Program-made: the position numbers and the translations under genes | Assembly: GCA_965237525.1 (NCBI GenBank) | Contig: CBDEFO010000003.1 | Coordinates: forward strand, 96,001 to 160,000 | From: Candidatus Latescibacterota bacterium | GTDB taxonomy: Bacteria; Latescibacterota; CBDEFO01 | Length of the DNA: 64,000 bases | Reading direction: 5' to 3' | The notes under the pieces: model-generated | Told to the model about the DNA's origin: nothing | The model's database searches: none | The model's input: only the letters and a program-made list of their open reading frames with translations | Part shown: piece after piece, positions 10,686-62,182 of the stretch | Layout: each line of letters opens with the position of its first letter | How positions within the stretch are numbered: position 1 is the stretch's first letter

Positions 10686-10983
10686 GACCAAAATGTTTTG
10701 CCTTTCCGAATCACAGCTAAGATCTATTTTATCAGGCAAGTTAAAGAGGACACACAACAAGCAGATAAAGCCGTGATCCCCGATTGATTCTATCGGGGAT
10801 GTCTTAAATGACAAAGTGTTTCTTCCCTCCTTTTACATCAACTACTTTGTCCTGGCTGAATGGAACCTAAAAGAAGAACAATTATACATCCATTTTGAAA
10901 AGGAGCAAAAACCAAAGGTTATCAGAAAGCTATCATTCAAGATTAATCAAAGATCCAAAGAGAAGTGTTCTCATTTCATATGA
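10686..10983 (+). pseudogene. Degraded ORF fragment, possibly a transposase/integrase C-terminus, interrupted by a 19-bp palindromic insert
   Basis: KIYFIRQVKEDTQQADKAVI and DVLNDKVFLPSFYINYFVLAEWNLKEEQLYIHFE...* join in frame if 10779-10797 is removed. The family assignment is by recollection only. Confidence 0.35.
10776..10800. repeat. Family-A micro-palindrome
   Basis: atccccgat-tgattct-atcggggat. Confidence 0.85.
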
Positions 10984-11045
10984 CCAATAACCAGTAGATA
11001 CTGCACCTCCTTCTACTTTAGCCGTCCTTGCAGGGCGACGCAGGA

Positions 11046-11079
11046 GCAAGCCCCCCATAGATTCAATCGAGGGCAAGCC
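11046..11079. repeat. Family-A micro-palindrome (reverse orientation) flanked by a 7-bp direct repeat
   Basis: gcaagcc-ccccatagattcaatcgagg-gcaagcc. Confidence 0.75.
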
Positions 11080-11167
11080 ACGAAGTAGGGTAAGCAATCT
11101 GCGTTATACTGCCTCCACCTTTGTGCTGTCCAATGTGTGCTGACTGCTTGTCCTACGACTATAGCTT

Positions 11168-12211
11168 CTATGTTACAGGAAGTTCGACTTCCGCCTCCCT
11201 TAAGTACCTTGCGGCGTCTTCAGGCAGAGTGGGATTGATGTAAAATCCGGTTCCCCACTCAAAGCCTGCTACCTTTGTCAGCCTCGGGATGATCTCAATA
11301 TGCCAGTGGAAATCGAACTCCAGAGTTCCCCAGTAGCCGGGTCTTCTGGGTCCTGCCTCCGTGTTCGGAGCCGTATGCAGCATAAAATTATACGGCGGAT
11401 CTGAAAGACTTACCTTCAATTTGGCTAACACATCCTTCAGACTCTCACATAGTGCCCCTATTTGGTCCTCTTGTATATCCCCAAAATCGTGAGAATGCCG
11501 GGTTGGAGCTAAAAAGACCTCAAAGGGGAACCTGGACGCGTAAGGGGCTATCGCCACAAAGTCGCCGTTTTCGAAGATAAGCCTCTCTCCTGACGAGATC
11601 TCCTGATCTATCACATCGCAGAAGAGACATCTTTCCTTTAACATGTAGTGATTCTTTGCCGAATCGAGCTCTTGAGCAACAATCTTAGGAGTAACTGGAG
11701 TTGCTATCAGTTGAGTGTGAGGGTGAGAAAGCGACGCTCCGGCAACTTCCCCGTAGTTTTTGAATATCAGGATATACCTGAACCTTGGATCCTTCTTGAG
11801 GTCGTTCAATCGGAGCTTGTAAGCTTTCACCACAAGTTCTAGATCCTCTACAGGCATATCTGCCATATTCACAGTGTGGTCAGGCGTCTCGATCACCACC
11901 TCATGTGCACCAACGCCGTTCATAACATCGAATATACCGACGCCCCTTCGGTCCAGATCTCCTTCGATTCTCAAAGCTGCAAACTTATTGGGAACTACCC
12001 TCACCTTCCACCCCGGAGAGTTAGGTTCTGTCCCTTTATCCCTGAAGGCGAATATCTCGGGAGGCGTCTTATCCTCATTTCCACCGCAGAATGGACAGAA
12101 ATCCGGTATCGGTTCCTCGGCGGTTATATTGAAGTCTGAGGGTCTCCTTGCCCTTTCTGTAGATATTATAACCCATCTTCTCTGTATGGGGTCGTGCCTC
12201 AATTCTGGCAT
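11168..12211 (-). CDS. galT: Galactose-1-phosphate uridylyltransferase family (GalT)
   Basis: MPELRHDP start, CPFC, VVPNKF and GASLSHPHTQ (HxH) motifs; WHIEIIPRL...AGFEWGTG. Confidence 0.9.
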   Translation of the reverse strand: MPELRHDPIQRRWVIISTERARRPSDFNITAEEPIPDFCPFCGGNEDKTPPEIFAFRDKGTEPNSPGWKVRVVPNKFAALRIEGDLDRRGVGIFDVMNGVGAHEVVIETPDHTVNMADMPVEDLELVVKAYKLRLNDLKKDPRFRYILIFKNYGEVAGASLSHPHTQLIATPVTPKIVAQELDSAKNHYMLKERCLFCDVIDQEISSGERLIFENGDFVAIAPYASRFPFEVFLAPTRHSHDFGDIQEDQIGALCESLKDVLAKLKVSLSDPPYNFMLHTAPNTEAGPRRPGYWGTLEFDFHWHIEIIPRLTKVAGFEWGTGFYINPTLPEDAARYLREAEVELPVT

Positions 12212-12220
12212 ATTAACACC

Positions 12221-12250
12221 TCTGATCCCCGACCCCTGATTTAATCGAGG
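12221..12250. repeat. Family-A element overlapping the stop codon of the GH57 4-alpha-glucanotransferase
   Basis: tctgatccccgacccctgatttaatcgagg, near-identical to 25740-25769. Confidence 0.75.
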
Positions 12251-14403
12251 ACCAAAACACAAAACTCAAAGTTGCATTCCCATCTATCTTTAGGACCTAT
12301 CCCTATCTTCCAATTGGGAAACACAACGGAGCTTTGATATGTCCTTTCAAAGCCTTTTTCCGATTGCGAAACTGTCTCCACAGGAAAACGCCATACGTCT
12401 GTCTTTCTATCGAATTTTAACGACACAGTCAAATTCCGATCATCGTCGTCTAAATCTATCCTATCTATTCCTTCAACAGCTCCTGTGCTCCCTAAACTGC
12501 AATCCTTTAAGTCCACTTGTAAATTTCGACTACGGATCTCGTAGTGCCTTGCTGGTCCCTCTCCTGATAGAAATGAAAAATTAAACTCCACGCCGAACCA
12601 GAGTTCTACGTCCGCATCCAGAGGGTTTTCAATAACGTAGCGCACATCCACTTGGGCGTTAGATTTAGACATCTTAAGCTTCTTGGACACCGTCAAAGGT
12701 TGTTTCTTTTGTCCGTATATCCCCCCATCTCTTCGCATTGATACCTCTTTGCCACCATTTTGATCCTTAATATCGTACAAATAAGGCTGATTCACAAAAT
12801 CTCCCAACTCCCGGTACTCGCACGCCTTGAATCCTTCAAGTGAGGTCCCTTCTCCCAGGAAATGATCCAGAAAGCACACTCTGTTGTACCAGTCATATTT
12901 GAGATAACGCTCGATTCCCTCCTCCGTCACCTTAGCCAGGTCGTGAATACTGCCAGGCCCTTCATACTGTTTGCCCTCCACTTCTACCTCATACCTGCCC
13001 TCTATGATATCCCTGTGATAGCTTTCAGGCCTCCTTGACAGAGTGTTCACCAGATTGAAATCTCTCGGCTTGTAGTCCAATTCAAAGAGTGACCCGCCGT
13101 AGGAAGGATCAAGATACAGATTCAGCAGGCCGTTGCTCAAGATAATCTCATCTTTTCCGTCCCCGTCAAAATCCAACTCCTCGGACTCAATCCAATCTCC
13201 TGAACCTTTTTCCTCTTCATCGGAGATCCTTTCGGCCCTTATAAGGTGTCTGTAAACGGTGTCCCTTAGATGAGGCAGATAGAGACCTCCGAACACGCCG
13301 TGCCAGTAAGCACAGTTACACTGTCCTTTCCATAGCTCGCTTATAGCTTCTCCCTCCCCTTTTAAATCGACTTTCCTGCTCACAGAGAGCATCTTTTTGT
13401 GCATATTGTTGCTCTCATCATACTTGGCCAGGAACCCCCTCCAGAATCCGCCCTTTAAGAACACCTTATACTTTTCTATCTCTCCTTTGTCCTTCAAATC
13501 CTCCACAATATCCTCAAGCTCCGCTCCCTTTTGAGATGGGAGAGTCCATTGGCTCATCTCAAAATAAGAGGCTGTCGGGAGGTATGCCCTGCCTGAAGCC
13601 GGGTGCTTATCGGTGAAGTCCGAAAAGGTAGTGGTATTAATCCAATCGCTGTTCTCCTCCAGAGCACAGAAGAACTTCTCCAGCCACTTCTCCTTATAGA
13701 CCCAATCGTAAGTCTTGGGCCATAGGCCGAACTTCTCTCCGTCGTCAACGATCACCGATAACCTGTCTCGATTCAGAGAGGTCGGATCGTTCTCAGTGCC
13801 CATGTCTCGTAGATAATCGATTGTAAATTCTGGTAACTTGAACGGAATTCCGTATCTCAGCCTTTCGCTTATCGGAAAGATAGAGAGCACATACCCCTGT
13901 TCTTCAGTATTGAAATATCCGTAGAGTTCCTCTTCGTTGAATCCGGCGCTTTTGAAGTGATAATCGTCGAGGGCTACATACTTTATCCCCGCCTCAGCCA
14001 GCGGCTTGGGTAGGTGAGGCTCCCATACCCTTTCAGGCAGCCACATCCCCCTTGCCTCGTACCCGAATCTATCCTTGATGTAATCTGTCAACATCTCTAT
14101 TTGACCTATCTTATCCCTGTCGGGGATAATAGGCATAATAGGCTCGTAGAATCCCCCGGTCATCATCTCGACCTGTCCTCTATCTACTAACTCTTTCAGC
14201 ATAGCGATAAACTCAGGTCTCTTTTGCTCTATCCATTCCAGAAGACAGCCGGAATAGTGCAGAACCATCTTTATAGAGGGGTGCCTTGAAAGGATCTGGA
14301 TAAAGGGCAGATACGACTTTTTGTAGGCCATTTGAAAGACAGAGTCAAAATTCCCCACTGGTTGATGGCAGTGTATCCCGAATATAAGATTTATCCTCTT
14401 CAT
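12241..14403 (-). CDS. GH57 4-alpha-glucanotransferase / alpha-amylase
   Basis: HCHQPVGN, GMWLPERVW, DDGEKFG and AYWHGVFGGLY motifs; ATG at 14403 overlaps the upstream stop. Confidence 0.92.
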   Translation of the reverse strand: MKRINLIFGIHCHQPVGNFDSVFQMAYKKSYLPFIQILSRHPSIKMVLHYSGCLLEWIEQKRPEFIAMLKELVDRGQVEMMTGGFYEPIMPIIPDRDKIGQIEMLTDYIKDRFGYEARGMWLPERVWEPHLPKPLAEAGIKYVALDDYHFKSAGFNEEELYGYFNTEEQGYVLSIFPISERLRYGIPFKLPEFTIDYLRDMGTENDPTSLNRDRLSVIVDDGEKFGLWPKTYDWVYKEKWLEKFFCALEENSDWINTTTFSDFTDKHPASGRAYLPTASYFEMSQWTLPSQKGAELEDIVEDLKDKGEIEKYKVFLKGGFWRGFLAKYDESNNMHKKMLSVSRKVDLKGEGEAISELWKGQCNCAYWHGVFGGLYLPHLRDTVYRHLIRAERISDEEEKGSGDWIESEELDFDGDGKDEIILSNGLLNLYLDPSYGGSLFELDYKPRDFNLVNTLSRRPESYHRDIIEGRYEVEVEGKQYEGPGSIHDLAKVTEEGIERYLKYDWYNRVCFLDHFLGEGTSLEGFKACEYRELGDFVNQPYLYDIKDQNGGKEVSMRRDGGIYGQKKQPLTVSKKLKMSKSNAQVDVRYVIENPLDADVELWFGVEFNFSFLSGEGPARHYEIRSRNLQVDLKDCSLGSTGAVEGIDRIDLDDDDRNLTVSLKFDRKTDVWRFPVETVSQSEKGFERTYQSSVVFPNWKIGIGPKDRWECNFEFCVLVLD

Positions 14404-15105
14404 ACGTACCACATCCTCTCCAGAAAATCCTTCCCGGGGACCTCTACTGTCATGGCTCCGTGCAGAGGCCACACCTCCATCTGTGAACCACCCTTCACAA
14501 CGTATATCCTTACCCCAACGCTCTCTCCCTTCGACGCTCCCAGGGTGTCAAACGGCACTTTTACCTCGAACACCTTATCTACTCCTACTTCGATATCTGG
14601 GAAGTTCTTATTGTTGTTCTCAAGGGACATATCGAGTCCCAATCTATCTTTTCCCACAACCTCTATCGCGACAGAGATGCCTTCATCTCTCATCTGGTCG
14701 GGACTTATTGTCGTATCCGCTCTCAGATAGAGATTCTCTAGATCGAAGCCGTAATGCACGTTCTTTAAGATCGTTCCTCCTCGATGCGTCGAACCCCTTT
14801 CGCCACCCATGCTGTGGCATCCTGCGCTCAACCACTCATAGTACCCTGTCACCTTTCCATCTATAACGGGGCATATGAAATCCACAGGCTCCTTGAAAGG
14901 CAGTCGCTTCTCCACCTTTGTAAGAGGAACATCCAGATATCCCGGCGGTTCTTTGCCTATCAACTGGTAGAAATTCTTCAGATGACCTCTGAAGAGACTG
15001 TCGAACTGCTCATCGTGTGATGACGAATGATCTGCCCCGTACCACCAGAACCAGTCGCTTCCCTGGGCCATATAGATCTCATCTTGCGCTCTTCTTACTG
15101 CAGGA

Positions 15106-15134
15106 GATCCCACCCGATTTAATCGGGAGGGATC
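15106..15134. repeat. Family-A palindrome in frame inside the GH57 CDS
   Basis: gatcccacccgatttaatcgggagggatc; encodes DPSRLNRVGS on the minus strand. Confidence 0.8.
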
Positions 15135-15564
15135 CTCTTTTAGACTGTCCAGTTCATCACCAGCCATCTTTAGATACTCCCAGCCCCTATTCTCCTCTTC
15201 GTCGCCTATCCAGGTCCCGAAATTGGCGTCTATCCACGAACCCGGAAAGATCCTCTTCAAACGCGTCCCTTCAGGGTGCATCTTTAGAAAAGAATTAAAA
15301 GTTATAGTCTTTAATCCTTTGGTGTTACTCAACTTCTTGTACAGCGCCCTTAGAAACTCGGCTCCATTTTCCCTGTAATTCTCCCAGGCGTTCTCACCAT
15401 CCAATATTATCGAAACTATGTGCGCTCCACTGTCTGCCTCAATGCCGTCTCTTATATTCAAAAGGCGCCCCACGAAGTCCTCCGCCGCTTTTTTGGCATC
15501 CCATGTTTGATACACAAACCCTATAAGGTCGGACAATCTGTGGTCTCTGAAGAAGAGCTTTATG

Positions 15565-15606
15565 TCCCCGATTGAACCCCCCCCCGATTAAATCGGGGGG
15601 GGGGGA
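15565..15606. repeat. Nested family-A palindromes with homopolymer arms
   Basis: tccccgattgaa-C9-gattaaatc-G11-a. Confidence 0.85.
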
Positions 15607-16594
15607 TTTGTCTCCATCTCCGAAGCTGTACATCCGAAAGGGCGTTCCACTTTTTCCGCTTAGCTTGAGAGACTCCCTCAAAACTCCGTCGTCGCTTGCC
15701 ATCCAATCTATCCCCAAACCGGCGGCGATATTCCCAACTTCCTGGCTTATCGAACCTTCAGATGGCCACATTCCAGAAGGAGTTTTTCCAAGAATCCTAT
15801 TGTGAAACTCTAAAGCTTCCACAATCTGAGCCCTGGCATCCCCTGGCCTTTTTAACTTCAAGCGGGGGAGATTAGCTTGCGGAAGACCCTCCCTTGCTGA
15901 ATCAGTATCGCACAAAAGCGGCAATATGGGATGATGAAAGGGACTAGTAGATATTTCGATCCTTTCTTCATCCCACAATCTTCTGTAAATCTGGGTTATC
16001 TTGCCTATAATCTCTCTTTCCAACTCAAGGAGGACCCTCTTATTGTCCTCAGAATAGCCCCTTCCCTTCCTCAAAAGTTCCACTATCTGATCTTTCTCTT
16101 TCAGACTATTCCCGCACCACGCCAGATTGAAGCAGACCTGAAGGTCCAGAAAATCCTCCTTCTTAAACCTCTGTACTGCCCTTTCCAGATTATCCCCGTC
16201 TCTACGTCTCATCGCGTAGAGTTCATAATATCTCTTAAAGGGTTTTATCATATTTTCAAAATTTGCGTGGAAGAAATTTTCCAAGATAAAGACCTTATCA
16301 TCCAAAGAGAGTTCTTCGGCTTCCTTTTTCGTCAGCTCCCAGAATTTATCGCTGGCCTTTCCCTCAGCGTAATCCTTCAACTGGACTAAAAGCGATGGGA
16401 CCAAATTAAACGTCACCCTCACCTCCTCGCATTCATCCACGATAGCTGCCATATCGTAATAATCCTTAATACCGTGCAGATACACCCATGGCAGAATGTA
16501 CTCCCCTGAGGAAAGGTCCTTATAAAATGGCTGGTGCATGTGCCACAAAAACGCCACATAGAGCGGATGCCCCGATTTTGTCGAAGCATCCACG

Positions 16595-17827
16595 CTATTT
16601 CCCCCTCCTGACTTCCACCTTCAAAACCCTCCTGTCGGTCGCATCCACAACCCTGAACCATACGCCCTCTTGTGACATAATCTCCCCTACCTTGGGTAGC
16701 CTTCCGAAAAACGAGATGAGCATTCCGCCTATCGTCTCGTAATCCTCCTTTTCAATCTTCAAGCCAAGTTTTTCGTTCAATTCATCTATCTCCATCCTAC
16801 CTTCTACGACTACTGCATCCCTTGTGAGCTCAATTCCACTTGATCTATCGTATTCATCCTCTATTTCTCCCACGACTTCCTCTACAATATCTTCCAAGGT
16901 TACTATCCCGGAGATTCCCCCATACTCATCCACGACCGTGCCCACATGCTTCCCGTTGGCCCTGAGATCGGCCAGTACTTCCTCGGCGCTTTTCGTCTCA
17001 GGCACGATATAGACATCGTCCATGACCTCTTCAACAGGGGCATTTTCGTCCAACCCAATTAGATCGACGGCGTGAACCATGCCCACCACATTATCCACTC
17101 TGTCTCTATAGACCGGAATCCTCGAATGTCCTGTCTGGATCATCAGTTTTGCAGTATGACCAACATTTTCAGACACAGACACAGCCACAATATCTATCAG
17201 GGGGACCATAATCTCCCTAGTTCTGAGCTCCCCAAAGTGGAATATATGGTGGATCATTCTTCTTTCATCTCTGTGCAGAGCTCCGTGCCTTTCACCCTCC
17301 CTTACGAGTATCTGAATCTCATCTCTGGTGACAAAGGGGCTTTCATTTTTGACATCGCCGCCAACTATCTTGGCAATAAGATTTGAAATAGAAGTAACAA
17401 TCGCCACAATGGGGAGCATCGCAAAATACGACACCTTCAGAGGAAAGATTGTTACGAGGACCAACCTGTCGGCATACTGCCTTGCCAGGGACATCGGCAC
17501 TATCTCGCCGAAGATAAGGATCAGAGGCCACATAATCGCCGCAGAGACTATAGCCACAAGGTCCTTGCTCACCCATTCGACCGCCAGGCTCGCAGCGACT
17601 GCAGACCCTGCGACAATAGGCAAGTTCACTCCCACCATCGTAGCTGCCAAGAATTTCTGTGGCTCATCCAAAAAATCCACGGCAACCTTTGCCAGCTTGT
17701 TACCGCTTTCGGACAGATGGCGCAATTTTAGCCTGTTGCAGGAGAGCATAACCATTTCAACTCCGCTAAAAAACGCCTGTGCTCCCAGGCACATAAGGAT
17801 GATGATTATTCCTGTAAGTTCACTCAA
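16595..17827 (-). CDS. CNNM/hemolysin-family protein (DUF21-CBS-CorC)
   Basis: AFFSGVE, FGEIVP, HSRIPVY and VDEYGG...TLEDIVEEVVGEI motifs; TTG start after AAGGAG. The longer ORF start at 17932 runs through a repeat. Confidence 0.88.
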   Translation of the reverse strand: MSELTGIIIILMCLGAQAFFSGVEMVMLSCNRLKLRHLSESGNKLAKVAVDFLDEPQKFLAATMVGVNLPIVAGSAVAASLAVEWVSKDLVAIVSAAIMWPLILIFGEIVPMSLARQYADRLVLVTIFPLKVSYFAMLPIVAIVTSISNLIAKIVGGDVKNESPFVTRDEIQILVREGERHGALHRDERRMIHHIFHFGELRTREIMVPLIDIVAVSVSENVGHTAKLMIQTGHSRIPVYRDRVDNVVGMVHAVDLIGLDENAPVEEVMDDVYIVPETKSAEEVLADLRANGKHVGTVVDEYGGISGIVTLEDIVEEVVGEIEDEYDRSSGIELTRDAVVVEGRMEIDELNEKLGLKIEKEDYETIGGMLISFFGRLPKVGEIMSQEGVWFRVVDATDRRVLKVEVRRGK

Positions 17828-17883
17828 AGTATCCGGCGCTCTCCTTTTTAACAAGTAAGTGGACAGGCGTGCCCCCGCCGCTA

Positions 17884-17965
17884 AGATTGCTTGGGTCTTA
17901 GGTCCCCTCGCAATGACCCAAGTGAAAGCCAAACGATGTCATTGCGAGCAACAGCTAAGCTATTT
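17884..17965. repeat. Family-B repeat (agattgc...ctcgcaatgac / gtcattgcgag...)
   Basis: 11-bp perfect inverted repeat at 17907-17917 and 17938-17948; related copies at about 24301-24364, 27477-27558, 57094-57243 and 11021-11100. Confidence 0.75.
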
Positions 17966-18006
17966 CTTAAACAGGACATCACCATCCCTGCGTACTGTCT
18001 ACTTGT

Positions 18007-24300: not shown

Positions 24301-24385
24301 ATTGTTTCGGTGCTTTGCCCCTCGCAATGACTAGGGGGCCCCAAGCCAAACAATGTCATTGTGATCCCCAACTTAATCGGGGGCC
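24301..24385. repeat. Family-B repeat with a family-A element at its right end
   Basis: ctcgcaatgac...aagccaaacaatgtcattg followed by tgatccccaacttaatcggggg; lies between convergent genes. Confidence 0.7.
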
Positions 24386-24392: not shown

Positions 24393-25814
24393 TTAAAATT
24401 TATAGCTTCCGGAGAAGAATAACCTCCTTGTCTCCTCGTCCCGGTCGACTTCAGATCTTATCTGTCTGAAGACTGCACGCGACCACGCAAAGTCCAACTG
24501 AAGCGACTGATCTATCAGGACTCCTGCTCCTAATGTGATAAAGTCCCGGTCGTCCTTTATATCGACAGGAAGCTCTCCGAGCACGGTCAAGGTCGGACCT
24601 ACGAAAGATAGCGGGTCTCTGTAGAATCCTCCCCGCAGTTTGACCTCAACTAAAGGAAGTGAATATTCGGCTCCTATGTGGAATCTGGTGACTCCTTTGT
24701 ACTGCTTATCGAAGTCAGCTTTTCCGTCCCCATCTATGTCCTCTACAAAGGAGATCTCTTCACGGAACTCATCCTGGAAGGTAAAGATAGGGTCCTCTTT
24801 GAACTCGGTCTCATCCCAGGATGCGAAGCTCATATCGGCGCTTAGAATGAAGCTCGGAAAGGACAGCGAACCTCCAATTCCGAACTCGAAGGGGATACGG
24901 ATTTTATACTCTCCTAAAAAGGGCGTAGGGTCCCTGAAATCTATGGTTACGCTGTCTGGTTCTTCCTCGAACCAAAGGGTATCCGCAAATTCACTCCGAC
25001 CTTCCACCTTTATCTTATAGGTAACGGGGCTGGAAACGGCAGCTCCAAGGCGAAAATGTTTCCCTCCTTTAATAAGTATCCCCAGCCTGGCGTTGAATCC
25101 GCTGTATTCATCGGATCGGGATATTGCGTTAAAGAGACCGATTATGTCTGGATTGGTGTCAGGGTCATTGACGAATGATTTGGCGGAAATATCGGCTATT
25201 TGTGAAAATTCGTCGCCGCCGTCCCATATATTCAGGGCTAGTCCCAAAGAGACAGACGGCGAAATGTCCGTCGCGCCTGCTATGGAAAAGACCCCCAATC
25301 CTCCTTCATCTCTTTGCTGGACATCGTTCTCATATTCAAATATGGTGTCATCCACACCTTTATATCGGATCTTCGAATCGAAATCTTTGATCCTGTTATA
25401 GCCTATAGCGAAGACCAGGCTCCCCTGATATACGGGGACAGGATAGACAAACCCCAAAGACCCGAGGGGCGTGTTGGAGATGTCATCCGATCTTTTGGTC
25501 CCAAAGAAGGTCGTTTCCGTTTCGTGTCTGGCTTGGATGATAGCGCCATAGATTTCGGCTCTTTTTATCTGAGCCAATCCGGCGGGGTTCCAGTAGGTGG
25601 CGGAAAAGTCATCTGCGACTCCGATATAGGCTCCTCCCATCCCCATAGCCCTCGCCCCCACACCCGAGAAATTGTCTATAGACACCTCCTGTCCCGACGC
25701 ACTTCCTGAAGCTAAAAAGAATATAACCGCCAAGAGAGTTCTGATCCCGGACCCCCGATTTAATCGGCGCTTTACTCGGGGGCAGGGTTGATCAATAGAA
25801 CGATCCATCTCCAT
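24393..25814 (-). CDS. OmpP1/FadL-like outer-membrane beta-barrel
   Basis: GARAMGMGGAYIGVADDFSATYWNPAGLA hatch motif; C-terminal YKF. The start is uncertain because a repeat lies in the 5' end. Confidence 0.8.
   Translation of the reverse strand: MEMDRSIDQPCPRVKRRLNRGSGIRTLLAVIFFLASGSASGQEVSIDNFSGVGARAMGMGGAYIGVADDFSATYWNPAGLAQIKRAEIYGAIIQARHETETTFFGTKRSDDISNTPLGSLGFVYPVPVYQGSLVFAIGYNRIKDFDSKIRYKGVDDTIFEYENDVQQRDEGGLGVFSIAGATDISPSVSLGLALNIWDGGDEFSQIADISAKSFVNDPDTNPDIIGLFNAISRSDEYSGFNARLGILIKGGKHFRLGAAVSSPVTYKIKVEGRSEFADTLWFEEEPDSVTIDFRDPTPFLGEYKIRIPFEFGIGGSLSFPSFILSADMSFASWDETEFKEDPIFTFQDEFREEISFVEDIDGDGKADFDKQYKGVTRFHIGAEYSLPLVEVKLRGGFYRDPLSFVGPTLTVLGELPVDIKDDRDFITLGAGVLIDQSLQLDFAWSRAVFRQIRSEVDRDEETRRLFFSGSYKF
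25742..25794. repeat. Extended family-A element in the 5' end of the FadL-like gene
   Basis: tgatcccggacccccgatttaatcggcgctttactcgggggcagggttgatca. Confidence 0.75.
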
Positions 25815-25915: not shown

Positions 25916-25953
25916 CCCTGCCCCTGATTGAATCTATTGGGAGTCAGGGATCA
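25916..25953. repeat. Extended family-A element
   Basis: ccctgcccctgattgaatctattgggagtcagggatca. Confidence 0.75.
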
Positions 25954-27386: not shown

Positions 27387-27468
27387 CCCTCGATTGAATC
27401 TATCGGGCGTACACAGGGCACCGCCTCCCATCCCTTGAGTCCCCGATTGAATCTATCGGGGACTCAAG
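27387..27468. repeat. Two family-A copies
   Basis: ccctcgattgaatctatcggg (27387-27407) and cttgagtccccgat-tgaatct-atcggggactcaag (27434-27468, 14-bp perfect arms). Confidence 0.88.
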
Positions 27469-28901: not shown

Positions 28902-29184
28902 ACGACATGCTTTCCTATCATAACTCTACATTGCTATTTACGTCCAAACGATACATGGGCCAATATAGCCAAGATCGATTTCAAAGTCAACCCCCGATTC
29001 AATCCATTTGGAGGAGAAGTTTCTCACAATTGAGTATAGCGTTCATAGAGCTGTGTTTCCCCTTGCGTATTCTGTTGCAATGTCCTATTTTATCTTACAT
29101 CGGATCAAATGAGCACAAAAGGTACCATAGAGAAAAAGATAGCTTGAAACTTGTCCTCACGAAAGTGGGGAACGGAGGGAGATA

Positions 29185-32323: not shown

Positions 32324-32412
32324 TGGTGCCGAAGCCGGGAGTCGAACCCGGATGGACGTTAAAGCCCGCGGGATTTTGAGCCCCGTGTGTCTACCAGTTT
32401 CACCACTTCGGC
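32324..32412 (-). tRNA. tRNA-Leu (anticodon CAA)
   Basis: GCCGAAG acceptor stem, D-loop GGTA, anticodon arm cgggg-ctCAAaa-tcccg, long variable arm, GTTCGA T-loop and encoded CCA. Confidence 0.95.
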
Positions 32413-32980: not shown

Positions 32981-33037
32981 TACACGATCTTTCTTTTTTG
33001 AACTGCTTGTTACAGAGTCAACATGTTTTCCCTAAAT

Positions 33038-33064
33038 GTAGGGGCGAGATAATCTCGCCCCTAC
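33038..33064. repeat. GTAG-type REP-like perfect palindrome
   Basis: gtaggggcgagat-a-atctcgcccctac. Confidence 0.75.
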
Positions 33065-34108: not shown

Positions 34109-34179
34109 CAGTTCCACCTCCTGGGGTTTAGTCCTACAGATAATGGCAAGTCCCCCGATTTAAGAAGGAGACCTGCAAT

Positions 34180-49660: not shown

Positions 49661-49663
49661 ACC

Positions 49664-53366: not shown

Positions 53367-53377
53367 GAAAAGTAATA

Positions 53378-54040: not shown

Positions 54041-54055
54041 AAGAAACCCTCTATT

Positions 54056-54598
54056 TTAAGCCCTAAAGGGCATTTTGAATTCTCTTAAGAGCTCGAACGC
54101 TTCCTCATCGATCCGAGCCGTGGTCACAATAGTAATATCCATACCGCGGATCTTATCTATCTTATCGTAGTCTATTTCGGGAAAGATGATCTGCTCTAAT
54201 ATTCCTATGGAGTAGTTTCCTCTTCCGTCTAAAGAGCCAGAAGACACACCTCTAAAGTCCCTTATCCTCGGCATAGTGAAAGTCAAAAGACGGTCCAGGA
54301 ACTCATACATCCTATCTCCCCTTAAAGTCACTTTACATCCTATGTTCATGCCTTTTCTCAGCTTGAAATTGGATACTGACTTTTTGGATTTCCGTAGAAT
54401 AGGCTTCTGACCGCTGATGATCGTCATATCTGCCACTGCTTTTTCTAAGGCTTTTGAATTTCCAATTGCCTCTCCCACGCCCATATTCAAGACAATCTTC
54501 TCTATACGGGGAACTTGCATTCTATTCTTGAAACCGAACCTTTCCATCAGAGCTGGAACTATCTTATTATCATAGAACTCTTTCAATCTTACTGACAC
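54056..54598 (-). CDS. rplE: 50S ribosomal protein L5
   Basis: [18 protein letters not shown] and RGMDITIVT motifs. Confidence 0.98.
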
Positions 54599-54615
54599 AG
54601 TCTATACCCTCTCCT

Positions 54616-54933
54616 TTAGGCTGAACTGATCATCTCATCGCACTTTCTGCATACCCTTGCCCTCTTTCCACTGCTCAAAACCGAAACTCCGGGACTTACC
54701 CTACTGTCACACTTGGGGCACACCAACATCAGATTTGATACCTGCACAGATGCCTCTTTTTCCAATATTCCTCCCTGCTGAGTCCCTCTGGCTTTGGTGT
54801 GCCGCTTTATAAAGTTTACTCCTTCAACTATAGCTCTTCCTTTTTTGGGAAAGACCTTAAGGATAGTTCCTCTTTTACCTATATCTTCCCCTGCTATCAC
54901 TTCGACCCTGTCGTCTTTTCTGATCTTAATCAC
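54616..54933 (-). CDS. rplX: 50S ribosomal protein L24
   Basis: KOW motif, VEGVN and SNLMLVCPKC. Confidence 0.97.
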   Translation of the reverse strand: MIKIRKDDRVEVIAGEDIGKRGTILKVFPKKGRAIVEGVNFIKRHTKARGTQQGGILEKEASVQVSNLMLVCPKCDSRVSPGVSVLSSGKRARVCRKCDEMISSA

Positions 54934-54954
54934 CTTTGAAGACCTCCAGAATCC

Positions 54955-55323
54955 TTAGATGACCTCCGACGCCAAAGATATGATCCTCATATAGCGCTTC
55001 TCCCTGAGCTCTCTTGCAACAGGTCCAAATATTCTTGTTCCTCTCGGTTCCCCCTGACCGTCTATCAAAACAGCGGCGTTGTCGTCGAACCTTATATACG
55101 ATCCGTCGTTCCTTCTTGTCTCTTTTCGGGTTCTAACCACCACAGCCCTCCCGACTTCTCCACTTTTGACTGTCCCGTCTGGTATGGCGTCCTTGACTAC
55201 CACTACAACGACGTCTCCGACACGCGCATAGCGCTTTTTAGATCCTCCCAATACCCTTATGCACATGGCTGTCCTTGCACCGGTGTTATCCGCAATCCTT
55301 AATCTTGTGTACTCACGTATCAT
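54955..55323 (-). CDS. rplN: 50S ribosomal protein L14
   Basis: ADNTGA, FDDNAAV and [12 protein letters not shown] motifs. Confidence 0.98.
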
Positions 55324-55350
55324 TCTTTGGGGCCCCGACAAAAAGACGCG

Positions 55351-55605
55351 CTATTTCGACTTTACGACAATATCTAGCAAGCGCCACCTTTTAGTCTTGC
55401 TCAAAGGTCGCGTTTCCATTACGCGTACAGTATCTCCAACTTTCGCTGAGTTTTCCTCATCGTGCACGTTCAGCTTTTTGCGACGCCTTATGACTTTCTC
55501 ATAGACAGGATGCCTTATGGTCCTTTCTACCTCAACCATAATTGTCTTATCGGCTTTGTCGCCCAGTACTTTTCCTACTGCAGTTTTCCTGTGTCCTCGC
55601 TCCAA
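55351..55605 (-). CDS. rpsQ: 30S ribosomal protein S17
   Basis: HPVYEK and [11 protein letters not shown] motifs. Confidence 0.97.
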
Positions 55606-55608
55606 ACT

Positions 55609-55857
55609 TTAGCCCTCCTCTCCCACGACAGGTTCAGATTCGGAGGATGAAGATGCAAGTTTCCTTATTCCCAGCTTATGCTCGTGGATAATAGTCGTAA
55701 GCCTTGCCACATCGCGTCTGACCTGTCTAATCCTTAAGGGGTTGTCCAGCTGTTTCGTCACTAACTGAAACTTCAAATTGGTAAGCTCCTCCTGAGAGTC
55801 TTGGAGTTGTCTTTCTGCCTCCTCCAAGGTCATATCTCTGATTTGGGAAGCTTTCAT
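55609..55857 (-). CDS. rpmC: 50S ribosomal protein L29
   Basis: LKFQ...QLDNP...RRDVAR; conserved gene position. Confidence 0.95.
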   Translation of the reverse strand: MKASQIRDMTLEEAERQLQDSQEELTNLKFQLVTKQLDNPLRIRQVRRDVARLTTIIHEHKLGIRKLASSSSESEPVVGEEG

Positions 55858-56273
55858 CAGTCCCATTCACCTCTTTCAACGAACTTAGTCTTAATAGGGA
55901 GCTTGTGGCCGGCAAGTCTTACTGCTTCTTTAGCTAATTCTCTGTCGACTCCTTCGATCTCAAACATAATTCTTCCGGGCTTTACCACGGCCACCCAGTG
56001 ATCAGGCGATCCTTTGCCTTTTCCCATTCTTGTCTCAGCTGGCTTGACCGTCACAGGCTTATCGGGGAATATCCTTCTCCACACCTTGCCGCCCCTGCTC
56101 ATATGCCTTGTTATGGCTACCCTTGCCGCCTCTATCTGGCGGTTGGTGACCCACCCCGGTTCTATGGCCTGGATCCCGTACTCTCCGAAGGAGATATTTA
56201 CACCCCTTGACTCTTTACCCTTCATCCTGCCCCTTTGCTGCTTTCTCCATTTCACTCTTTTAGGCATTAACAT
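55857..56273 (-). CDS. rplP: 50S ribosomal protein L16
   Basis: [11 protein letters not shown] and RMGKGKG motifs. Confidence 0.98.
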
Positions 56274-56337
56274 ATTTTAGTCCTTAAAGAATCACGAAGT
56301 GCCAAAGATCACTTCCAACAGAACTGATCTTAAAGCA

Positions 56338-57003
56338 TTAAGAATCCCCGCTGCTTTCGGGAACTGGGGAGGGTTTTAAGATCTCACCGTGACATATCCA
56401 TACCTTCACACCGGTGGTTCCCGATTTTGTAAATGCCGTGGATCTGGAGAAATCTATATCTGCCCTCAGCGTGTGGAGAGGGACCCTTCCCTCCAATTCC
56501 TGTTCCCTACGCGCTATCTCTATGTTCCCCAAACGCCCAGCGCATTCGATCCTGATCCCTTCGGCTCCCATACGCATAGCTGATAGAACAGCCCTTTTCA
56601 TAGCCCTTTTCACAGACACCCTCTGTTCGAGCTGACGGGCTATGTTGTCTGCTACCAACTTTGCGTCTAACTCAGGCGACTTTATCTCCTGAATGGCTAT
56701 ATATATATCTTTGTCTGTGATGTGCCTAAGCTCATCCCGCAGCTTGTCCACCTCAGCCCCTTTCCTGCCTATCACGATCCCCGGCCTTGCGGTGTGAATG
56801 TTTATTGTGACTCTTTTAGGTGCCCTTTCGATCTCGATAGTCGAAATCCCCGCCCTTTGAAGTCTGCTCTGTACGTACTTTCTGAGCATTATATCTTCCT
56901 CAAGAAGATCTGCAAAGTTCCCCTCTTCTGACGGAAACCATCTGGACTTCCAGTCCTTAACTATCCCGAGTCTTAATCCTATAGGATTTGTCTTTTGTCC
57001 CAA
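56338..57003 (-). CDS. rpsC: 30S ribosomal protein S3
   Basis: [12 protein letters not shown] and [13 protein letters not shown] motifs. Confidence 0.98.
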
Positions 57004-57056
57004 TGTGCATCTCCTTATAAAGCTAGTAGACAGGCCATCTCATCCCCTCCCCTATG

Positions 57057-57243
57057 CCCGACCCCAATAGATTTAATTGTGGGCTCAATCGGGGATTACT
57101 TCGGTTTTCCCTCCTAGCAATGAAATGACAAAAGGCAAGAGCAGGTCATAACTGAAGGTCTCACCAGTGAGCAGACTGTCAGTTTGAACCAAGGCCCAGA
57201 GTCTTCATCCCAGAGTGCAGCCAAGGGTCTGCGAAGCAATCTC
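57057..57243. repeat. Composite family-A and family-B repeat in the rplV-rpsC gap
   Basis: cccgaccccaatagatttaattgtgggctcaatcgggga, then gattacttcgg...ctagcaatga...cgaagcaatctc. Confidence 0.7.
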
Positions 57244-57322
57244 ACTATAGACTGCATTGGCCTGTATGTTATCTTCTTTTTTGGATTTCTATAATTTTGT
57301 CCAGACGATTTTGATCCGATAC

Positions 57323-57673
57323 TTAATCAGCAACCTTATCTGATATTACCACAGTAATATGACTAGATCTTTTCCTTATTCTTGTTGACATTCCTCTGGC
57401 CCTTGGGCGTATCCTTTTGAGCGTTACGCCTGCGTCCACGTATGCTTCTTTAATTACAAGGTCTTCCAGATTCACGTCAACCTCCCTGTCGCTTTGCATG
57501 GCGTTTCCTATAGCACTCCTTATTACCTTCTCTATTAGTTTTGCTGCGCGTTTAGGTGAAAAGTGAAGGATGTTTAAAGCGTCCTCGACTCTTTCCCCGT
57601 GGACTAAGTCCATCACCTGTCTGACTTTTCTTGGTGATATGCGTATAAATCTTTCCTTGGCCTTTGCCTCCAT
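57323..57673 (-). CDS. rplV: 50S ribosomal protein L22
   Basis: ISPRKVR and RPRARG...RSSHITV motifs. Confidence 0.97.
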   Translation of the reverse strand: MEAKAKERFIRISPRKVRQVMDLVHGERVEDALNILHFSPKRAAKLIEKVIRSAIGNAMQSDREVDVNLEDLVIKEAYVDAGVTLKRIRPRARGMSTRIRKRSSHITVVISDKVAD

Positions 57674-57776
57674 CTGATATACCCTCACCGCCTAAACTGC
57701 AGTAGAAGGAGGCGTTGCCTCTCGTCCTTGTGTGTCGTCTACTTGCAGTTGCCTTTCGCTTTTGTTGTCCACTTGT

Positions 57777-58064
57777 TTATTTGAGGGACGTGGACCTTTC
57801 GGTTATTCTCCCTGTATGTCCCCGGTAGGTCCTTGTGGGAGCAAATTCCCCCAACTTATATCCAACCATACTCTCGGTTATATAAACAGGCATAAACTTA
57901 TTACCATTGTACACTCCAAGGGTATGTCCCACAAAGTCAGGAGATATAGTGGATCTTCTGGACCACGTTTTGATAACTCTTTTTGCTCCTGTCCTGTTCA
58001 TTTCATCTATCTTCTTTTTCAGGCTGTCATCTATAAAGGGACCCTTTTTAACCGATCTGGGCAT
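57777..58064 (-). CDS. rpsS: 30S ribosomal protein S19
   Basis: [15 protein letters not shown] and KLGEFAPTR motifs. Confidence 0.98.
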
Positions 58065-58067
58065 AAT

Positions 58068-58892
58068 CTATTTCCTTCTCCTAACGATAAGATCATCTGA
58101 CTTCTTGTTAGGTTTTCTTGTTTTATAACCCTTGGTAGGTTTACCCCACGGCGTCATCGGAGGACGCCCTCCTTTGCTCTTACCTTCGCCTCCTCCTTGG
58201 GGATGATCTATGGGGTTCATGGCCGCACCCCTGACTTTGGGCCGCTTTCCGAGCCAGCGCGACCTTCCAGCCTTGCCAACGGTAATAATCTCGTGATCTA
58301 GGTTGCCGACCTGTCCCACAGTTGCATAGCACGTTACATCCACCACCCTTATTTCTCCGGAAGGCAGCTTCAGGTGCGCCCATCTTCCCTCTTTAGCCAT
58401 CAATTGAACCTGTGACCCTGCCCCCCTTGCTATCTGTCCTCCTTTGCCCCTTGCTAGTTCAATGTTGTGAAGTGCCATTCCCAGGGGGATGTTCTGTAGA
58501 GGTAGGGCGTTTCCCGGGCTTAGTGGAGCGTCAGGGCCCGACATTATCCTATCTCCTACCTTCAACCCTAAGGGGGCCAGGATATATCTTTTCTCTCCAT
58601 CAGCATACGCTAAGAGGGCTATCCTTGCCGAGCGATTCGGATCGTATTCAATCGCCTGCACACAAGCAGGAACTCCGTCCTTATCCCTTTTGAAATCTAT
58701 AATCCGATAGTGCCTTTTGTGGCCTCCTCCTCTCCTCCTCATAGTTATCTTGCCCCTGTTGTTCCTGCCTGCTGAACTCTTCAAGGGCGAACATAGCCGT
58801 CTTTCTGGATTAGTCTTTGTGATTTCCTCAAAGGAAGATACAGTTGCCCACCTCTGTGTCGGTGTTGTTGGCCTTAAAGTTTTGATTGCCAA
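58068..58892 (-). CDS. rplB: 50S ribosomal protein L2
   Basis: EYDPNRSA and [13 protein letters not shown] motifs; TTG start. Confidence 0.98.
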
Positions 58893-58893
58893 T

Positions 58894-59187
58894 TTATACT
58901 CCTCCAAAAATTTCTATAGTATTTCCGCCTTGGAGCGTCACTATGGCCTTTTTCCAATTCGGTCTCCTGCCTTCGGACCTCATCCCTAACCTCTTCAACT
59001 TCCCTCTCATAGACATAGTCCTGACTCTTGTCACTTTCACATCGAATATCTCTTCCACCGCCTGTTTGATCTGTAGCTTATTTGCTTTTTTGTCCACTTC
59101 GAACAGATATTTATTCTCTTCCGTCCTCAGCGCCGTCCCCTTCTCTGTTATCAGAGGGCGACGAATTACCCATCTCAGATCGTTCAT
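58894..59187 (-). CDS. rplW: 50S ribosomal protein L23
   Basis: [17 protein letters not shown] and WKKAIVTL motifs. Confidence 0.97.
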
Positions 59188-59815
59188 CAGATAGGATCTC
59201 CCGTAGCTTTTCAAGTCCCTTTTGTGTAAATACTACTAAATCGGCCTGTAAGACATCCCACGTGCAGAGGCTATCTGCCTGTTTTAGTTTCAAGCCCTGT
59301 ATGTTCCTGCAGGACTTTACCAACTCAGAAGAGGCCATATCCTCCAGGAGGAGCACCTTTTGACGCTCAGAAAGCCCCATAGCATTCAACAACCCTATCA
59401 CTATCTTCGTCTTGGGCCCGGAAAGCACAATATCCTCTATGATCGAGATCTTGTCCTCCTGGACTTTCAGCGACAGGGCTGACTTGAGGGCCAGCCTTCT
59501 GACCTTCTTTGGTACTCTTTGTCTGTATGACCGTGGGCCAGGCCCGAAGATAGTCCCTCCGCCTACACGGATCGGAGACCTTGCGCTGCCTGTCCTTGCC
59601 CTTCCTGTGCCTTTCTGTTTGTAGAGCTTCCTGCCTGAAGCGGTTACTCTTGCCCTGTTCTTCGTGGACGCTGTCCCCTGCCTTTGATTGGCAAGATAGG
59701 CTACCACAGACTGATAGATAGCTGGCTCTGAGGCCTTTATGTTAAAGATGCCATCTGAGACCTCGGCGGTTCCCGAAAGAGTCCCGTCTTTAGTGTAAGT
59801 TTTTATTTCTGCCAT
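59111..59815 (-). CDS. rplD: 50S ribosomal protein L4 (reads through into rplW)
   Basis: [16 protein letters not shown] and GGGTIFGP motifs. Confidence 0.96.
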
Positions 59816-59834
59816 GTCGGCTCTCGATCTAACT

Positions 59835-60452
59835 CTATTTCCTTATAGAGACGTAACTGTTTCTGGCCCCCGGCACAGCGCCAGAAAGAAAGAGCAGATT
59901 CGTCCCTTCATCCACCCCAATAACCTCTAAATTCTTCACAGTCACCTTTTGGTTTCCCATTCTCCCGGGCATCCTTGTGCCTTTAAAAACTCTCGCCGGG
60001 AAGGAACTTCCGCCTACAGATCCTGGCGCCCTCCATCTGTCCGATTGACCGTGAGTTTTAGGACCTCCTTTGAATCCATGTCTCTTGACAACTCCTGCAA
60101 ATCCCTTGCCCTTGGAAGTCCCTGTCACCTTTACCTTATCTCCAGCCTTGAAGATGTCCACCTTCAGTTCTCCTCCGACATCGTACTTATCCCCGTCCTC
60201 AATCGGGAACTCCTGAAGGACTCTCAAAGGATCAAGACGAGCTGCACGGAAGATGCCGTTCAAAGGCTTATTTACCTTCCTTTCGGGTATCTTCTCAAAA
60301 CCCAGTTGTACAGCATCATATCCATCCCTTTTTGCATTCTTGACCTGAACCACATAGCAGGGACCCGCCCGGATAACGGTTATGGGCACGAGGTTACCCT
60401 TTAAATCGAATATCTGAGTCATCCCGATCTTTTTCCCTATGATGCCGTTCAT
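59835..60452 (-). CDS. rplC: 50S ribosomal protein L3
   Basis: GKKIGMTQIF, SKGKGFAG and GAVPG motifs. Confidence 0.98.
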   Translation of the reverse strand: MNGIIGKKIGMTQIFDLKGNLVPITVIRAGPCYVVQVKNAKRDGYDAVQLGFEKIPERKVNKPLNGIFRAARLDPLRVLQEFPIEDGDKYDVGGELKVDIFKAGDKVKVTGTSKGKGFAGVVKRHGFKGGPKTHGQSDRWRAPGSVGGSSFPARVFKGTRMPGRMGNQKVTVKNLEVIGVDEGTNLLFLSGAVPGARNSYVSIRK

Positions 60453-60467
60453 TCATCCTCCGTAATA

Positions 60468-60782
60468 TCAGTTGATCACCTTAATACCTATGTCCACACC
60501 TGCAGGAAGGTCCAGCTTCATCAAGGCATCCACAGTCTGAGGTGTGGAGTCGTAGATGTCGATCAATCTTTTGTGCACCTTGATCTCAAACTGCTCGCGG
60601 GACTTTTTATCTATATGAGGACTCCTTAGTACGGTGTAAAGGGTCCTCTTTGTGGGAAGCGGAATGGGGCCCGCAAGCGTAGAACCGCTCCTTTTTACCG
60701 TCCTTGCTATCTCATCAGCCGAACGATCCAGGGTCACATGATCGTAAGCCTTAAGCCTTATCCGTATCTTCTGAGTGGGCAC
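60468..60782 (-). CDS. rpsJ: 30S ribosomal protein S10
   Basis: [16 protein letters not shown] and [14 protein letters not shown] motifs. Confidence 0.98.
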
Positions 60783-60792
60783 TCGGATCTCC

Positions 60793-61986
60793 TTACTCTA
60801 AAACCTTTGTTACCACGCCTGCGCCTATGGTTCTCCCGCCCTCGCGGATAGCAAACCTGAGTTCCTGCTCCATAGCGATGGGCTTCTCCTCCAGATCCAC
60901 AGACATCGTGACGTCGTCTCCGGGCATGATCATCTCAACACCCTCAGGGAGCTGGACAACTCCTGTCACATCGGTTGTTCTGAAGTAGAACTGCGGGCGG
61001 TATCCGGAAAAGAAGGGCTTTTCCCTTCCACCTTCTTTTGCGTTCAATATGTACACCGAAGCTTCGAAACTCGTGTGAGGTGTTATGCTTCCCGGATCCG
61101 CGATCACCATACCTCTTTCTAGTTCTTCCTTATCCACGCCCCTTAAAAGGAGACCGACGTTATCTCCGGCGATGCCTTGATCCAGAATCTTTCTGAACAT
61201 CTCTACACCCGTCACTACCGATTTTCTCGTCTCCCTCAGCCCTACAATTTCCACCTCATCTTGAACATTAATCGTGCCTCTTTCTACCCTCCCTGTTCCG
61301 ACAGTTCCCCTACCTGTGATGCTGAAGACATCCTCAACAGGCATCAAGAATGGTAGATCCACGTCCCTTTCTGGAACCGGGATATATTCATCCACAGCAG
61401 CCAACAGCTCGTCTATACACTGTGTATTCTCGTTGTCCTCTTCCGCCTCCACGGCCAAAAGCGCAGAGCCTCTTATCACGGGGATCTCGTCTCCTGGAAA
61501 CTCGTACTCGCTCAAAAGTTCCCTTGTCTCCAGTTCCACCAGCTCTAAAAGGTCAGGATCATCGACCATATCTACCTTATTGAGGAACACTACGATATAC
61601 GGCACGTTCACCTGGCGTGCCAGAAGGATATGCTCCCTTGTCTGAATCATGGGCCCATCTGCTGCTGATACGACCACGACAGCTCCGTCCATTTGAGCGG
61701 CACCCGTGATCATGTTCTTGATATAATCCCTGTGGCCAGGACAGTCAACGTGGGCATAGTGCCTCTTTTCTGTCTGGTACTCCACGTGGGAAATCGCGAT
61801 AGTGATGCCTCTTTCCTTCTCCTCCGGAGCCTTGTCAATCTCTTCGAAGGGGGTGTAATCGGCAAGTCCCTTTCTGGCCAAGACCTTCGTTATAGCAGCC
61901 GTTAAGGTCGTCTTTCCGTGGTCTATGTGGCCGATTGTGCCGATGTTCAGATGGGGCTTTGTCCTTTCAAACGTTTCCTTTGCCAT
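60793..61986 (-). CDS. tuf: Elongation factor Tu
   Basis: [18 protein letters not shown] and FAIREGG motifs. Confidence 0.99.
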
Positions 61987-62005
61987 CCTTAACCCTCCTT
62001 AAGGA

Positions 62006-62182
62006 AGTAGCCAATAGTCAGCAGACTGGGACACCAGGTCTCCTCCCTGCATGCTGTCTACCTGTCTTTACCTTCGCTTAGCCTGCTTGCTGTCTACTGT
62101 TCTGTTTCCTTGTCCTTTATTGTTTTCAAACTTCTGTTCTAGTCGCCGACAGATTCCACGATTGAATCTATCGGGGATCGGG
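62006..62182. repeat. Heptamer repeats plus a family-A element in the fusA-tuf gap
   Basis: agtagcc-aatagtc-agcagac ... tgctgtctac (twice), and gattccacgattgaatctatcggggatcggg (62152-62182). Confidence 0.7.

Follow-up and report, generated by a model that had tools for sequence, protein, structure and literature searches.

Hairpin copies in the window

A stretch of 64,000 nucleotides from the genome of a Candidatus Latescibacterota bacterium (GenBank assembly GCA_965237525.1, contig CBDEFO010000003.1, positions 96,001 to 160,000 of the forward strand; hereafter the window) carries dispersed copies of a very short palindromic hairpin, which an earlier note, made from the letters of the window, had taken for a non-autonomous mobile element. 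Comparison of the genome containing the window (G000; 4.58 Mb, 96.6% complete) with that of a congener (G001; about 95% identical, collinear at the window, 2.8 of its 4.54 Mb compared with G000) supports this claim: empty orthologous sites, differing positions in copies of insertion sequences (IS), landing in other repeats and in itself, and in-frame peptides reveal a real, recently active micro-element that inserts as a unit. Its long form has the 21-nt consensus CCCCGATTGAATCTATCGGGG, and the short form the 17-nt consensus CCCCGATTTAATCGGGG. Among the approximately 15 copies listed in the earlier note, 12 of 15 matched the 21-nt consensus at ≤4 mismatches or the 17-nt one at ≤2, the mean and the maximum in 100 order-2 Markov simulations of the window being 0.01 and 1, respectively. 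The remaining three were weaker: a degenerate copy identical in G001 (28991..29012, plus strand; matched from 28992) was recovered only at five mismatches, the sequence at 13762 was at least eight mismatches from either consensus, and that at 34151..34162 (plus strand, shared with G001) represents a half site only.

A 21-nt copy (10778..10798; plus strand here and below unless indicated) has added a net 19 nt to a decayed IS481-like relic (10719..10992, 81% identical to the 3' part of its family; IS names denote best matches below curated cut-offs) at TTATC^GATG. This site is empty in 52 G000 matches and filled in two G000 copies and one G001 copy, while the whole relic stretch is missing at the orthologous place of G001. 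Another 21-nt copy (11052..11072, minus strand) lies within a CGTC-type repeat, and a 17-nt copy (24362..24382), absent from the diverged G001 orthologue, in a remnant of such a repeat. The junction between the stop of a 4-alpha-glucanotransferase gene and the GalT start is occupied by a nested 17-nt copy (12221..12250), where G001 has 12 additional nt. Within the GH57 4-alpha-glucanotransferase, a degenerate sequence with a CCTGT leader (13762..13781, shared with G001) coincides with a 6-residue insert (about PTSLNR) immediately before DDGEK, absent in 8 of 8 outgroup orthologues; it is probably a family copy, though too degenerate to be assigned by sequence. The GH57 gene at 14400..16593 (minus strand) contains a 17-nt copy in frame (15106..15134), which adds about six residues where 10 of 10 outgroup orthologues show a gap, and a nested copy with long C and G runs (15565..15606, no strand assigned), at which the gene is split by a frameshift in G000; in G001 this copy is in frame, and the gene forms a single open frame of 743 codons.

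Several further copies are shared with G001: a nested 17-nt copy at the 5' end of a FadL-like open reading frame (ORF) with uncertain start (25742..25787), an intergenic 21-nt copy with a CCTGC leader (25916..25952), a 21-nt copy upstream of the probable start of an SDR protein gene (27388..27408), a nested copy between rpsC and rplV (57057..57094, minus strand) and a 21-nt copy (62156-62176) between tufA and fusA (62152..62180). An exact copy of the 21-nt consensus (27441-27461) occupies the loop of a host hairpin (27434..27468), with no intact copy in G001.

Abundance and structure of the element

Across the G000 genome the long form was found in 117 exact copies and in 552 copies at ≤3 mismatches (1 in an order-5 Markov control), and the short form in 26 copies at ≤1 mismatch (0 in the control), so that the genome-wide count, proposed as a check in the earlier note, is far above chance. 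The 552 copies form 465 flank clusters, that is, distinct sites, and the largest clusters (37, 10 and 10 copies) are passengers of larger repeats. The 37 copies are regarded as such because a composite repeat of about 250 bp, consisting of a CGTC-type repetitive extragenic palindromic (REP) sequence with the hairpin inside (e.g., C8:1099904), was amplified as one unit.

Together with its flanking bases the 21-mer folds into an 8-bp stem with a 7-nt loop, at about -7 kcal/mol (DNA parameters). One stem pair displayed the double GC-to-AT change in 52 copies versus single changes in 22 and 22 (G000 and G001 pooled, the shared copies being counted twice and hence not independent). The bases at positions -1 and +1 (T..A or C..G) pair in 81% of the copies versus 48% with shuffled partners, while positions further out do not pair; therefore, the working unit is a 23-mer (T-21-A or C-21-G). 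Later correction of the hairpin as a source of these paired flanks was ruled out, as only the -1/+1 bases pair and position -1 holds a pyrimidine almost without exception. The borders of the type GAT(C)/G(A)TC mentioned in the earlier note are thus real but belong in part to the element itself. A CYTGY leader precedes 77 G000 copies, often together with an AATG or GAGTG variant of the arm. No Rfam match was obtained for the element. The only Rfam match in the window is a tRNA gene (32327-32412, minus strand; RF00005, 53 bits).

Filled and empty sites

Orthologous G001 loci were available for 322 of 638 G000 matches, of which 254 were shared, 42 were empty with a small length difference, 16 fell into larger indels and 10 retained one arm only; reciprocally, 295 of 412 G001 matches had an orthologous G000 locus (241 shared, 22 empty, 18 in larger indels, 14 with one arm). 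The empty orthologous sites that the earlier note had proposed to look for in a related genome were thus found. With redundant loci, weakly anchored loci and copies of the short form taken out, 41 clean filled/empty pairs remained, with net gains of 18 (7 pairs), 19 (10), 20 (7) and 27 (9) nt or other values (8). The direction of change is insertion, since IS copies, including that hosting the window copy at 10778, give the polarity; among the IS1182-like elements, 2 of 138 copies have received the hairpin, and the two positions differ. Mismatches to the consensus are fewer in polymorphic copies than in shared ones (1.03, n = 36, versus 1.68, n = 321; p = 9e-4), as is expected of recent gains. 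Reads of sequencing runs at one locus (L102) did not polarize the sites, where run X8 is identical to G001 letter for letter and hence not independent. Apart from whole-unit differences, many shared loci of the two genomes differ by local duplications or losses of arms, 5-25 nt in size.

The genomes also differ in their IS content. G000 has undergone a burst of IS1182-like elements (138 copies of at least half length, e.g., C8:2014828-2016360 and C1:101580-102889, versus 5 in the 2.8 Mb of G001); IS481-like elements number 53 versus 0, and IS3-like ones show the reverse, 14 versus 47, in the same 2.8 Mb.

The clean pairs reveal how the element is joined to its target. In 24 of the 41 pairs three to five target bases are replaced: a net gain of 19 nt corresponds to four target bases replaced by Y-21-R, that of 18 to five and that of 20 to three. 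Targets of the +19 class (e.g., A[TCGA]C, C[TCGA]T, A[TCGT]C, G[ACGA]T, A[CTGT]C and C[GCGT]C) show, in 10 of 10 cases, C as the second base of one strand, which is retained as the element end (chance 2e-4). They are mostly preceded by a purine and followed by a pyrimidine, and the rule may be written as purine-[3-5 nt]-pyrimidine giving purine-Y-21-R-pyrimidine, with the target C or G kept as the element end. The common event is, as observed, usually a 23-mer overwriting three to five target bases with no duplication. Mismatches between filled and empty flanks accumulate at positions 1-2 and are at background further out (26 events), and at the junctions there is microhomology of 1-3 nt along with rewritten flank sequence. 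A CYTGT-type leader (an ACARG-type tail on the other strand) marks six of the nine +27 events; two others resemble a duplication of 5-6 nt, and one is a nested product. A target resembling HIP1 was not detected, TCGA and ATCGAT being not enriched (observed/expected 0.94 and 0.81).

A target duplication does not mark the insertion as a rule: the target is usually overwritten, and no general excess of direct repeats was found around the copies, except that among 464 copies those of six bases numbered 8 versus 1. The 7-bp repeat GCAAGCC that the earlier note saw at 11053 is not a target duplication either: G001 has the copy at this site and lacks the repeat, whose GCAAG part resembles the ACARG tail of the hairpin family.

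Landing places and orientation

Loose assignment rules place 160 of the 552 G000 copies in or next to CGTC-type REPs and 148 in other copies; heptamer tracts account for 65 and GTAG-type REPs for 21, and 237 have none of these contexts. Another repeat is found at most 40 nt away from 315 copies. Conversely, 88 of 305 CGTC-type REP matches contain the hairpin. The commonest self-nested class (22 copies, same orientation) obeys the 23-for-4 arithmetic. GTAG-type REP hairpins, a separate family also hosting the element, occur in the window at 10591-10650 and 33033-33061.

Such landing places bring in an explanation with no dedicated enzyme, in which template switching or microhomology-mediated repair would copy an existing hairpin into heptamer tracts, into the loops of other hairpins and at replication forks that have stalled. 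It agrees with the short microhomologies and rewritten flanks, with the local arm duplications and losses at shared loci and with the 315 copies next to another repeat. The narrow length of the unit and its conserved asymmetric loop, as well as the 237 copies in unique sequence without donor homology, do not suit it, and we consider it unlikely, although a contender to be kept in sight when the distribution of the element and the search for an enzyme are discussed below.

The origin as a host-selected signal (operator, uptake sequence or terminator) built up by point mutation is hardly credible. It would explain the high copy number, the mostly intergenic placement (461 of 578 copies) and the palindromic nature of the hairpin, but filled and empty alleles differ by whole units, IS copies have received insertions and the element nests in itself; the empty sites refute a signal as the origin. 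Furthermore, orientation relative to the neighbouring genes is unbiased (171 versus 169), and divergent regions, where the operator alternative named in the earlier note predicted an excess, are not enriched (13% of the copies versus 18% of intergenic length), both of which argue against an operator, terminator or RNA role. An operator and a terminator were ruled out on these grounds; the host may make secondary use of the hairpin. No bias between replication strands was seen (153/149 in G000; 90/113 in G001, p = 0.12), local GC skew being a poor proxy of the strand.

Effect on genes

Only 58 of 578 copies (10%; the set used for gene placement) are interior to predicted genes versus 64% of random positions, with 44 copies falling within 41 well-supported genes; the gene calls were our own dicodon calls, which frameshifting copies break, so that such copies are undercounted. 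This depletion reads as purifying loss. In 12 of the 41 clean pairs the empty allele lies in a coding frame: eight of these gains are in frame, and four are frameshifts (two in IS transposases, two in weak short ORFs), while outside genes in-frame and other gains number 11 and 18. The in-frame survivors add 6-9 residues in several reading frames and give rise to recurrent peptides, such as SPIESIGD, SPIDSIGD, PRLNLSG and PDRFNRG.

The proposal that the element is a source of peptide insertions was supported by residues that in-frame copies add to proteins in comparison with outgroup orthologues. In the window, a position inside a gene was upheld for the copies at 15112 and 15582 in the GH57 gene, probably for that at 13762 and possibly for that at 25753, where the FadL-like start is uncertain. 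In contrast, the copies at 12234 and 27388/27441 precede the probable starts of GalT (MPELRHDP...) and of the SDR protein (MQMKDKTA...), the Pfam matches beginning at residues 19 and 30, and hence their LNRG-type peptides are probably untranslated. As for the suggested gene disruption, only about 10% of the copies are intragenic, and the break in the GH57 gene did not result from the insertion itself. At the nested copy, run X1 is identical to the window, and X2 and X4, from near-identical strains, are shorter by one C; considering this and the intact frame in G001, the break arose later, by slippage of 1 nt in the C run made by the element. The C and G runs of the nested copy are a possible slippage switch in this gene. 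The element is a source of change that can be measured: it puts short in-frame inserts into conserved enzymes and leaves homopolymer runs at which genes later lose their frame.

Distribution among genomes

Within 41 relatives from its own phylum, the element is carried by G000 and G001 only. A loose arms-only pattern gave 357 and 317 matches in these two genomes and no more than 45 in any of 149 further genomes from this phylum. For CCCCGA-N3-11-TCGGGG, two genomes of the same phylum gave 45 (G011) and 29 (G016) matches, and the reversed control 0 and 4; these hairpins lack the loop of the family and are possibly sister micro-hairpin families.

Among the 56 named loci listed, the exact core occurs in Latescibacterota (44), Deltaproteobacteria (10), Thermodesulfobacteriota (1) and Nanoarchaeia (1), and none of the named carriers listed is cyanobacterial. 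The Nanoarchaeia record (L191) is one exact copy on a 3.5-kb contig, single in its bin and possibly misbinned. The exact core was also found in at least 120 metagenome stretches and its variants in seven viral stretches; a loose pattern of leader plus arms in viral contigs returned mostly heterogeneous matches. Foreign copies have the same C..G or T..A ends in different hosts. The recurrence of the same letters in distant phyla, with only 2 of 41 genomes carrying them in the own phylum, is a further point against copying by host repair with no dedicated enzyme.

Search for a mobilizing enzyme

No match to Y1_Tnp was found in G000 or G001, and none to RVT_1 or 23S_rRNA_IVP (four-helix bundle) in G000. 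ORFs beside foreign copies (100 of 140 checked) included no recurrent nuclease or transposase, and the 52 G000 genes having copies on both sides are housekeeping or IS genes as judged by eye, with no family scan. No mobilizer common to all carriers emerged, which is in line with the host-repair explanation.

The RVT_1 result bears on an RNA-templated route, in which a transcript of the hairpin would be reverse-transcribed and convert the target. The co-converted flanks resemble those of the yeast mitochondrial GC clusters, for which an RNA route has been considered (PMC4478555; here and below, published systems are described as far as the available parts of the cited papers go). With no RVT_1 match in a genome 96.6% complete, even orientation relative to genes and no Rfam match, this route is very improbable.

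A REPIN-like transposition by a visiting Y1 transposase (RAYT/IS200), since lost, appears improbable as well, though less so. In its favour, the absence of target duplication and the insertion 3' of a C are as in TnpA-REP (PMC3333891), GTAG-type REPs are still common in G000 along with a RAYT-like Y1 transposase preserved only as a C-terminal relic (C8:1476322-1476606), and Y1 proteins are encoded by all four other carriers tested. Nevertheless, neither G000 nor G001 has an intact Y1 gene, the element is near none of the 15 Y1 loci of other carriers, it is a singlet without the GTAG tag, target bases are lost, and the base after the C is mostly G, as opposed to the C^T cut by TnpA-REP (PMC3333891).

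GIY-YIG proteins of G000 comprise UvrC and one intact Ssn-type gene of 95 residues (C4:479839-480123). The latter is framed by inverted CGTC-1-type hairpins (cassette C4:479,790-480,170), which is the architecture described for Ssn cassettes (PMC11893778). In G001, ssn is missing at the orthologous place, and four stubs, each a hairpin with the first few codons, occur elsewhere. In total, 11 ssn loci were read, nine of them in element-carrying genomes. At two of the 11 (L469 and L470, from another phylum) the framing hairpins are tagged with GTCAT, and their cores are 3-4 places off the 19-nt core of G000; one such tagged core hairpin stops 14 nt short of the start codon, and the gene that follows is about 70% identical to the G000 Ssn. 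The GTCAT tag occurs in 7 of 75 foreign contexts, in one of them with a near-exact core in a REP dimer. In the class to which another carrier belongs, core variants are present in 21 of 96 genomes, and Ssn relatives in 32 of 96. No Ssn relatives were found in viral contigs or among the stored metagenome and viral loci. As for the earlier note's suggestion to look for nuclease genes flanked by the motif, core variants frame 2 of 11 ssn loci, but the motif flanks neither the G000 ssn nor any of the 15 Y1 loci. At a further ssn locus (L472, genome G242) a different short hairpin seems to be inserted, upstream of the gene, into the ssn-framing hairpin.

Proposed mechanism

Considering these data, the reading we prefer, tentatively and with somewhat less than even confidence, is that the element is an untagged stem-loop of the CGTC-REP/Ssn type, cut out as single-stranded DNA (ssDNA) by an Ssn-type nuclease and patched in by host repair. 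A recognition hairpin of this type would have lost its tag, leaving a bare stem-loop; a visiting GIY-YIG nuclease of the Ssn type would cut exposed ssDNA a few bases from the hairpin, releasing a fragment, which host repair would then patch into nicks or gaps via 1-3 bases of microhomology. The ssDNA intermediate, the identity of the nuclease, the joining by host enzymes and mobilization in trans are inferred. On ssDNA, the SsnA cut falls in the variable flank, a few bases to the 5' side of the hairpin (PMC11893778), and the leaders of variable length fit this. The mobility of the SRM hairpins has been only hypothesized (PMC11893778), and CGTC-type REPs have no dedicated transposase in the available account (PMC3733652). 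A broader proposition, rather doubtful at present, is that a bare Ssn-cassette hairpin became an independent replicator of about 20 bases, which spreads by nick-and-overwrite, crosses phyla with visiting ssn cassettes and writes inserts of 6-9 residues into enzymes.

A number of observations weigh against the Ssn-based mechanism. No intact ssn was detected in G001 or in four other carrier genomes, though G001 has private copies, and the own ssn of G000 is framed by a different hairpin and not by this core. Nine of the 11 ssn loci lack the core, seven of these nine being in element-carrying genomes; the GTCAT tag adjoins only 3 of 552 G000 copies; and the co-occurrence of core and Ssn is weak (9/19 versus 18/77 genomes, p = 0.048, the genomes being related). 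The hairpins that flank ssn may have received the core as an insertion in their loops, an insert of such kind being seen at L472. About two of the nine +27 events, and likewise 8 of 464 copies, have a direct repeat of 5-6 nt, so that a minority of insertions does come with a duplication. For gains within genes, the frame bias has p = 0.03 if the two IS-transposase cases are set aside and p = 0.17 if they are counted. Ssn is not known to join strands. Cleavage by SsnA depends on bases upstream of the palindrome and on the stem sequence (PMC11893778), and the tag that it needs is missing from the mobile copies. As to the degenerate SRM search string (PMC11893778), none of the 552 copies is inside a match; the string misses as well the hairpins framing ssn in G000 and at L469/L470, and hence is too strict to decide for or against membership.

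If this broader proposition is true, Ssn nucleases would be the missing mobilizers of CGTC-type REPs and of SDR-like micro-elements. The genome pair bears on how a DNA of about 20 bases moves and on what spreads the CGTC-type REPs: dozens of filled/empty junctions define a testable rule, and the candidate enzyme consists of 95 residues and has matching substrates.

Comparison with known systems

The SDR repeats of Nostocaceae reportedly (Elhai and co-workers, 2008) are 21-27 nt long and land in heptamer tracts and in themselves, and no enzyme is known to move them. The element of G000, likewise a dispersed unit of 21-27 nt with filled and empty orthologous sites, resembles them in this reported size and in the reported habit of entering heptamer tracts (65/552) and itself (148/552). 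By description, SDR1-8 are dispersed units of about 20 nt, possibly mobile and precisely inserted into a short site (PMC4390886, PMC5861425, PMC2884548, PMC3116915), SDR5 between bases 3 and 4 of HIP1 (PMC4390886); among HIP1-rich genomes, the available text reports no SDR outside Nostocaceae (PMC5861425). Unlike these, our element is non-cyanobacterial, overwrites three to five bases of a loose target, occurs in several phyla and is linked to ssn cassettes.

With the CGTC-type REPs and SRM hairpins it shares a GC-rich stem of 8-9 bp that has an A-T pair at its base, and some intragenic copies (PMC3733652; PMC11893778), and tagged versions of its core frame ssn genes in two genomes. In contrast to them, the G000 copies lack the (C/T)GTC tag and the CCA-type tail (3/552 tagged), are singlets and not head-to-head dimers, have a 7-nt loop instead of 4-5 nt, as the available descriptions give it, and insert into CGTC-type REPs. 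REPs and REPINs mobilized by RAYT are also short non-autonomous palindromes without duplication in hundreds of copies (PMC3116915, PMC3333891), but in our case the flanks have no conserved GTAG (21 of 552 copies are merely in or near GTAG-type REPs), there is no doublet, and no Y1 gene is intact or flanked. The element differs from miniature inverted-repeat transposable elements in having no target-duplication rule and in its ends, which are unlike those of the large IS families compared.

The Rickettsia palindromic elements similarly insert in frame into unrelated genes and yield recurrent peptides (PMC10969869); however, they are about 100-150 bp in size and largely intragenic, whereas here 18-27 nt are gained, about 10% of the copies are intragenic and several frames are used. 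The yeast mitochondrial GC clusters are mobile GC-rich palindromes as well, with a stem constraint, substitutions beside the insert and mergers, but are organellar, 42 nt long and flanked by AG/ACT duplications (PMC4478555). No publication describing the element was found in the literature searched, subscription journals and supplements being outside its scope. New in comparison with the systems listed are the replacement rule, by which a 23-mer takes the place of three to five target bases, and the link to ssn cassettes.

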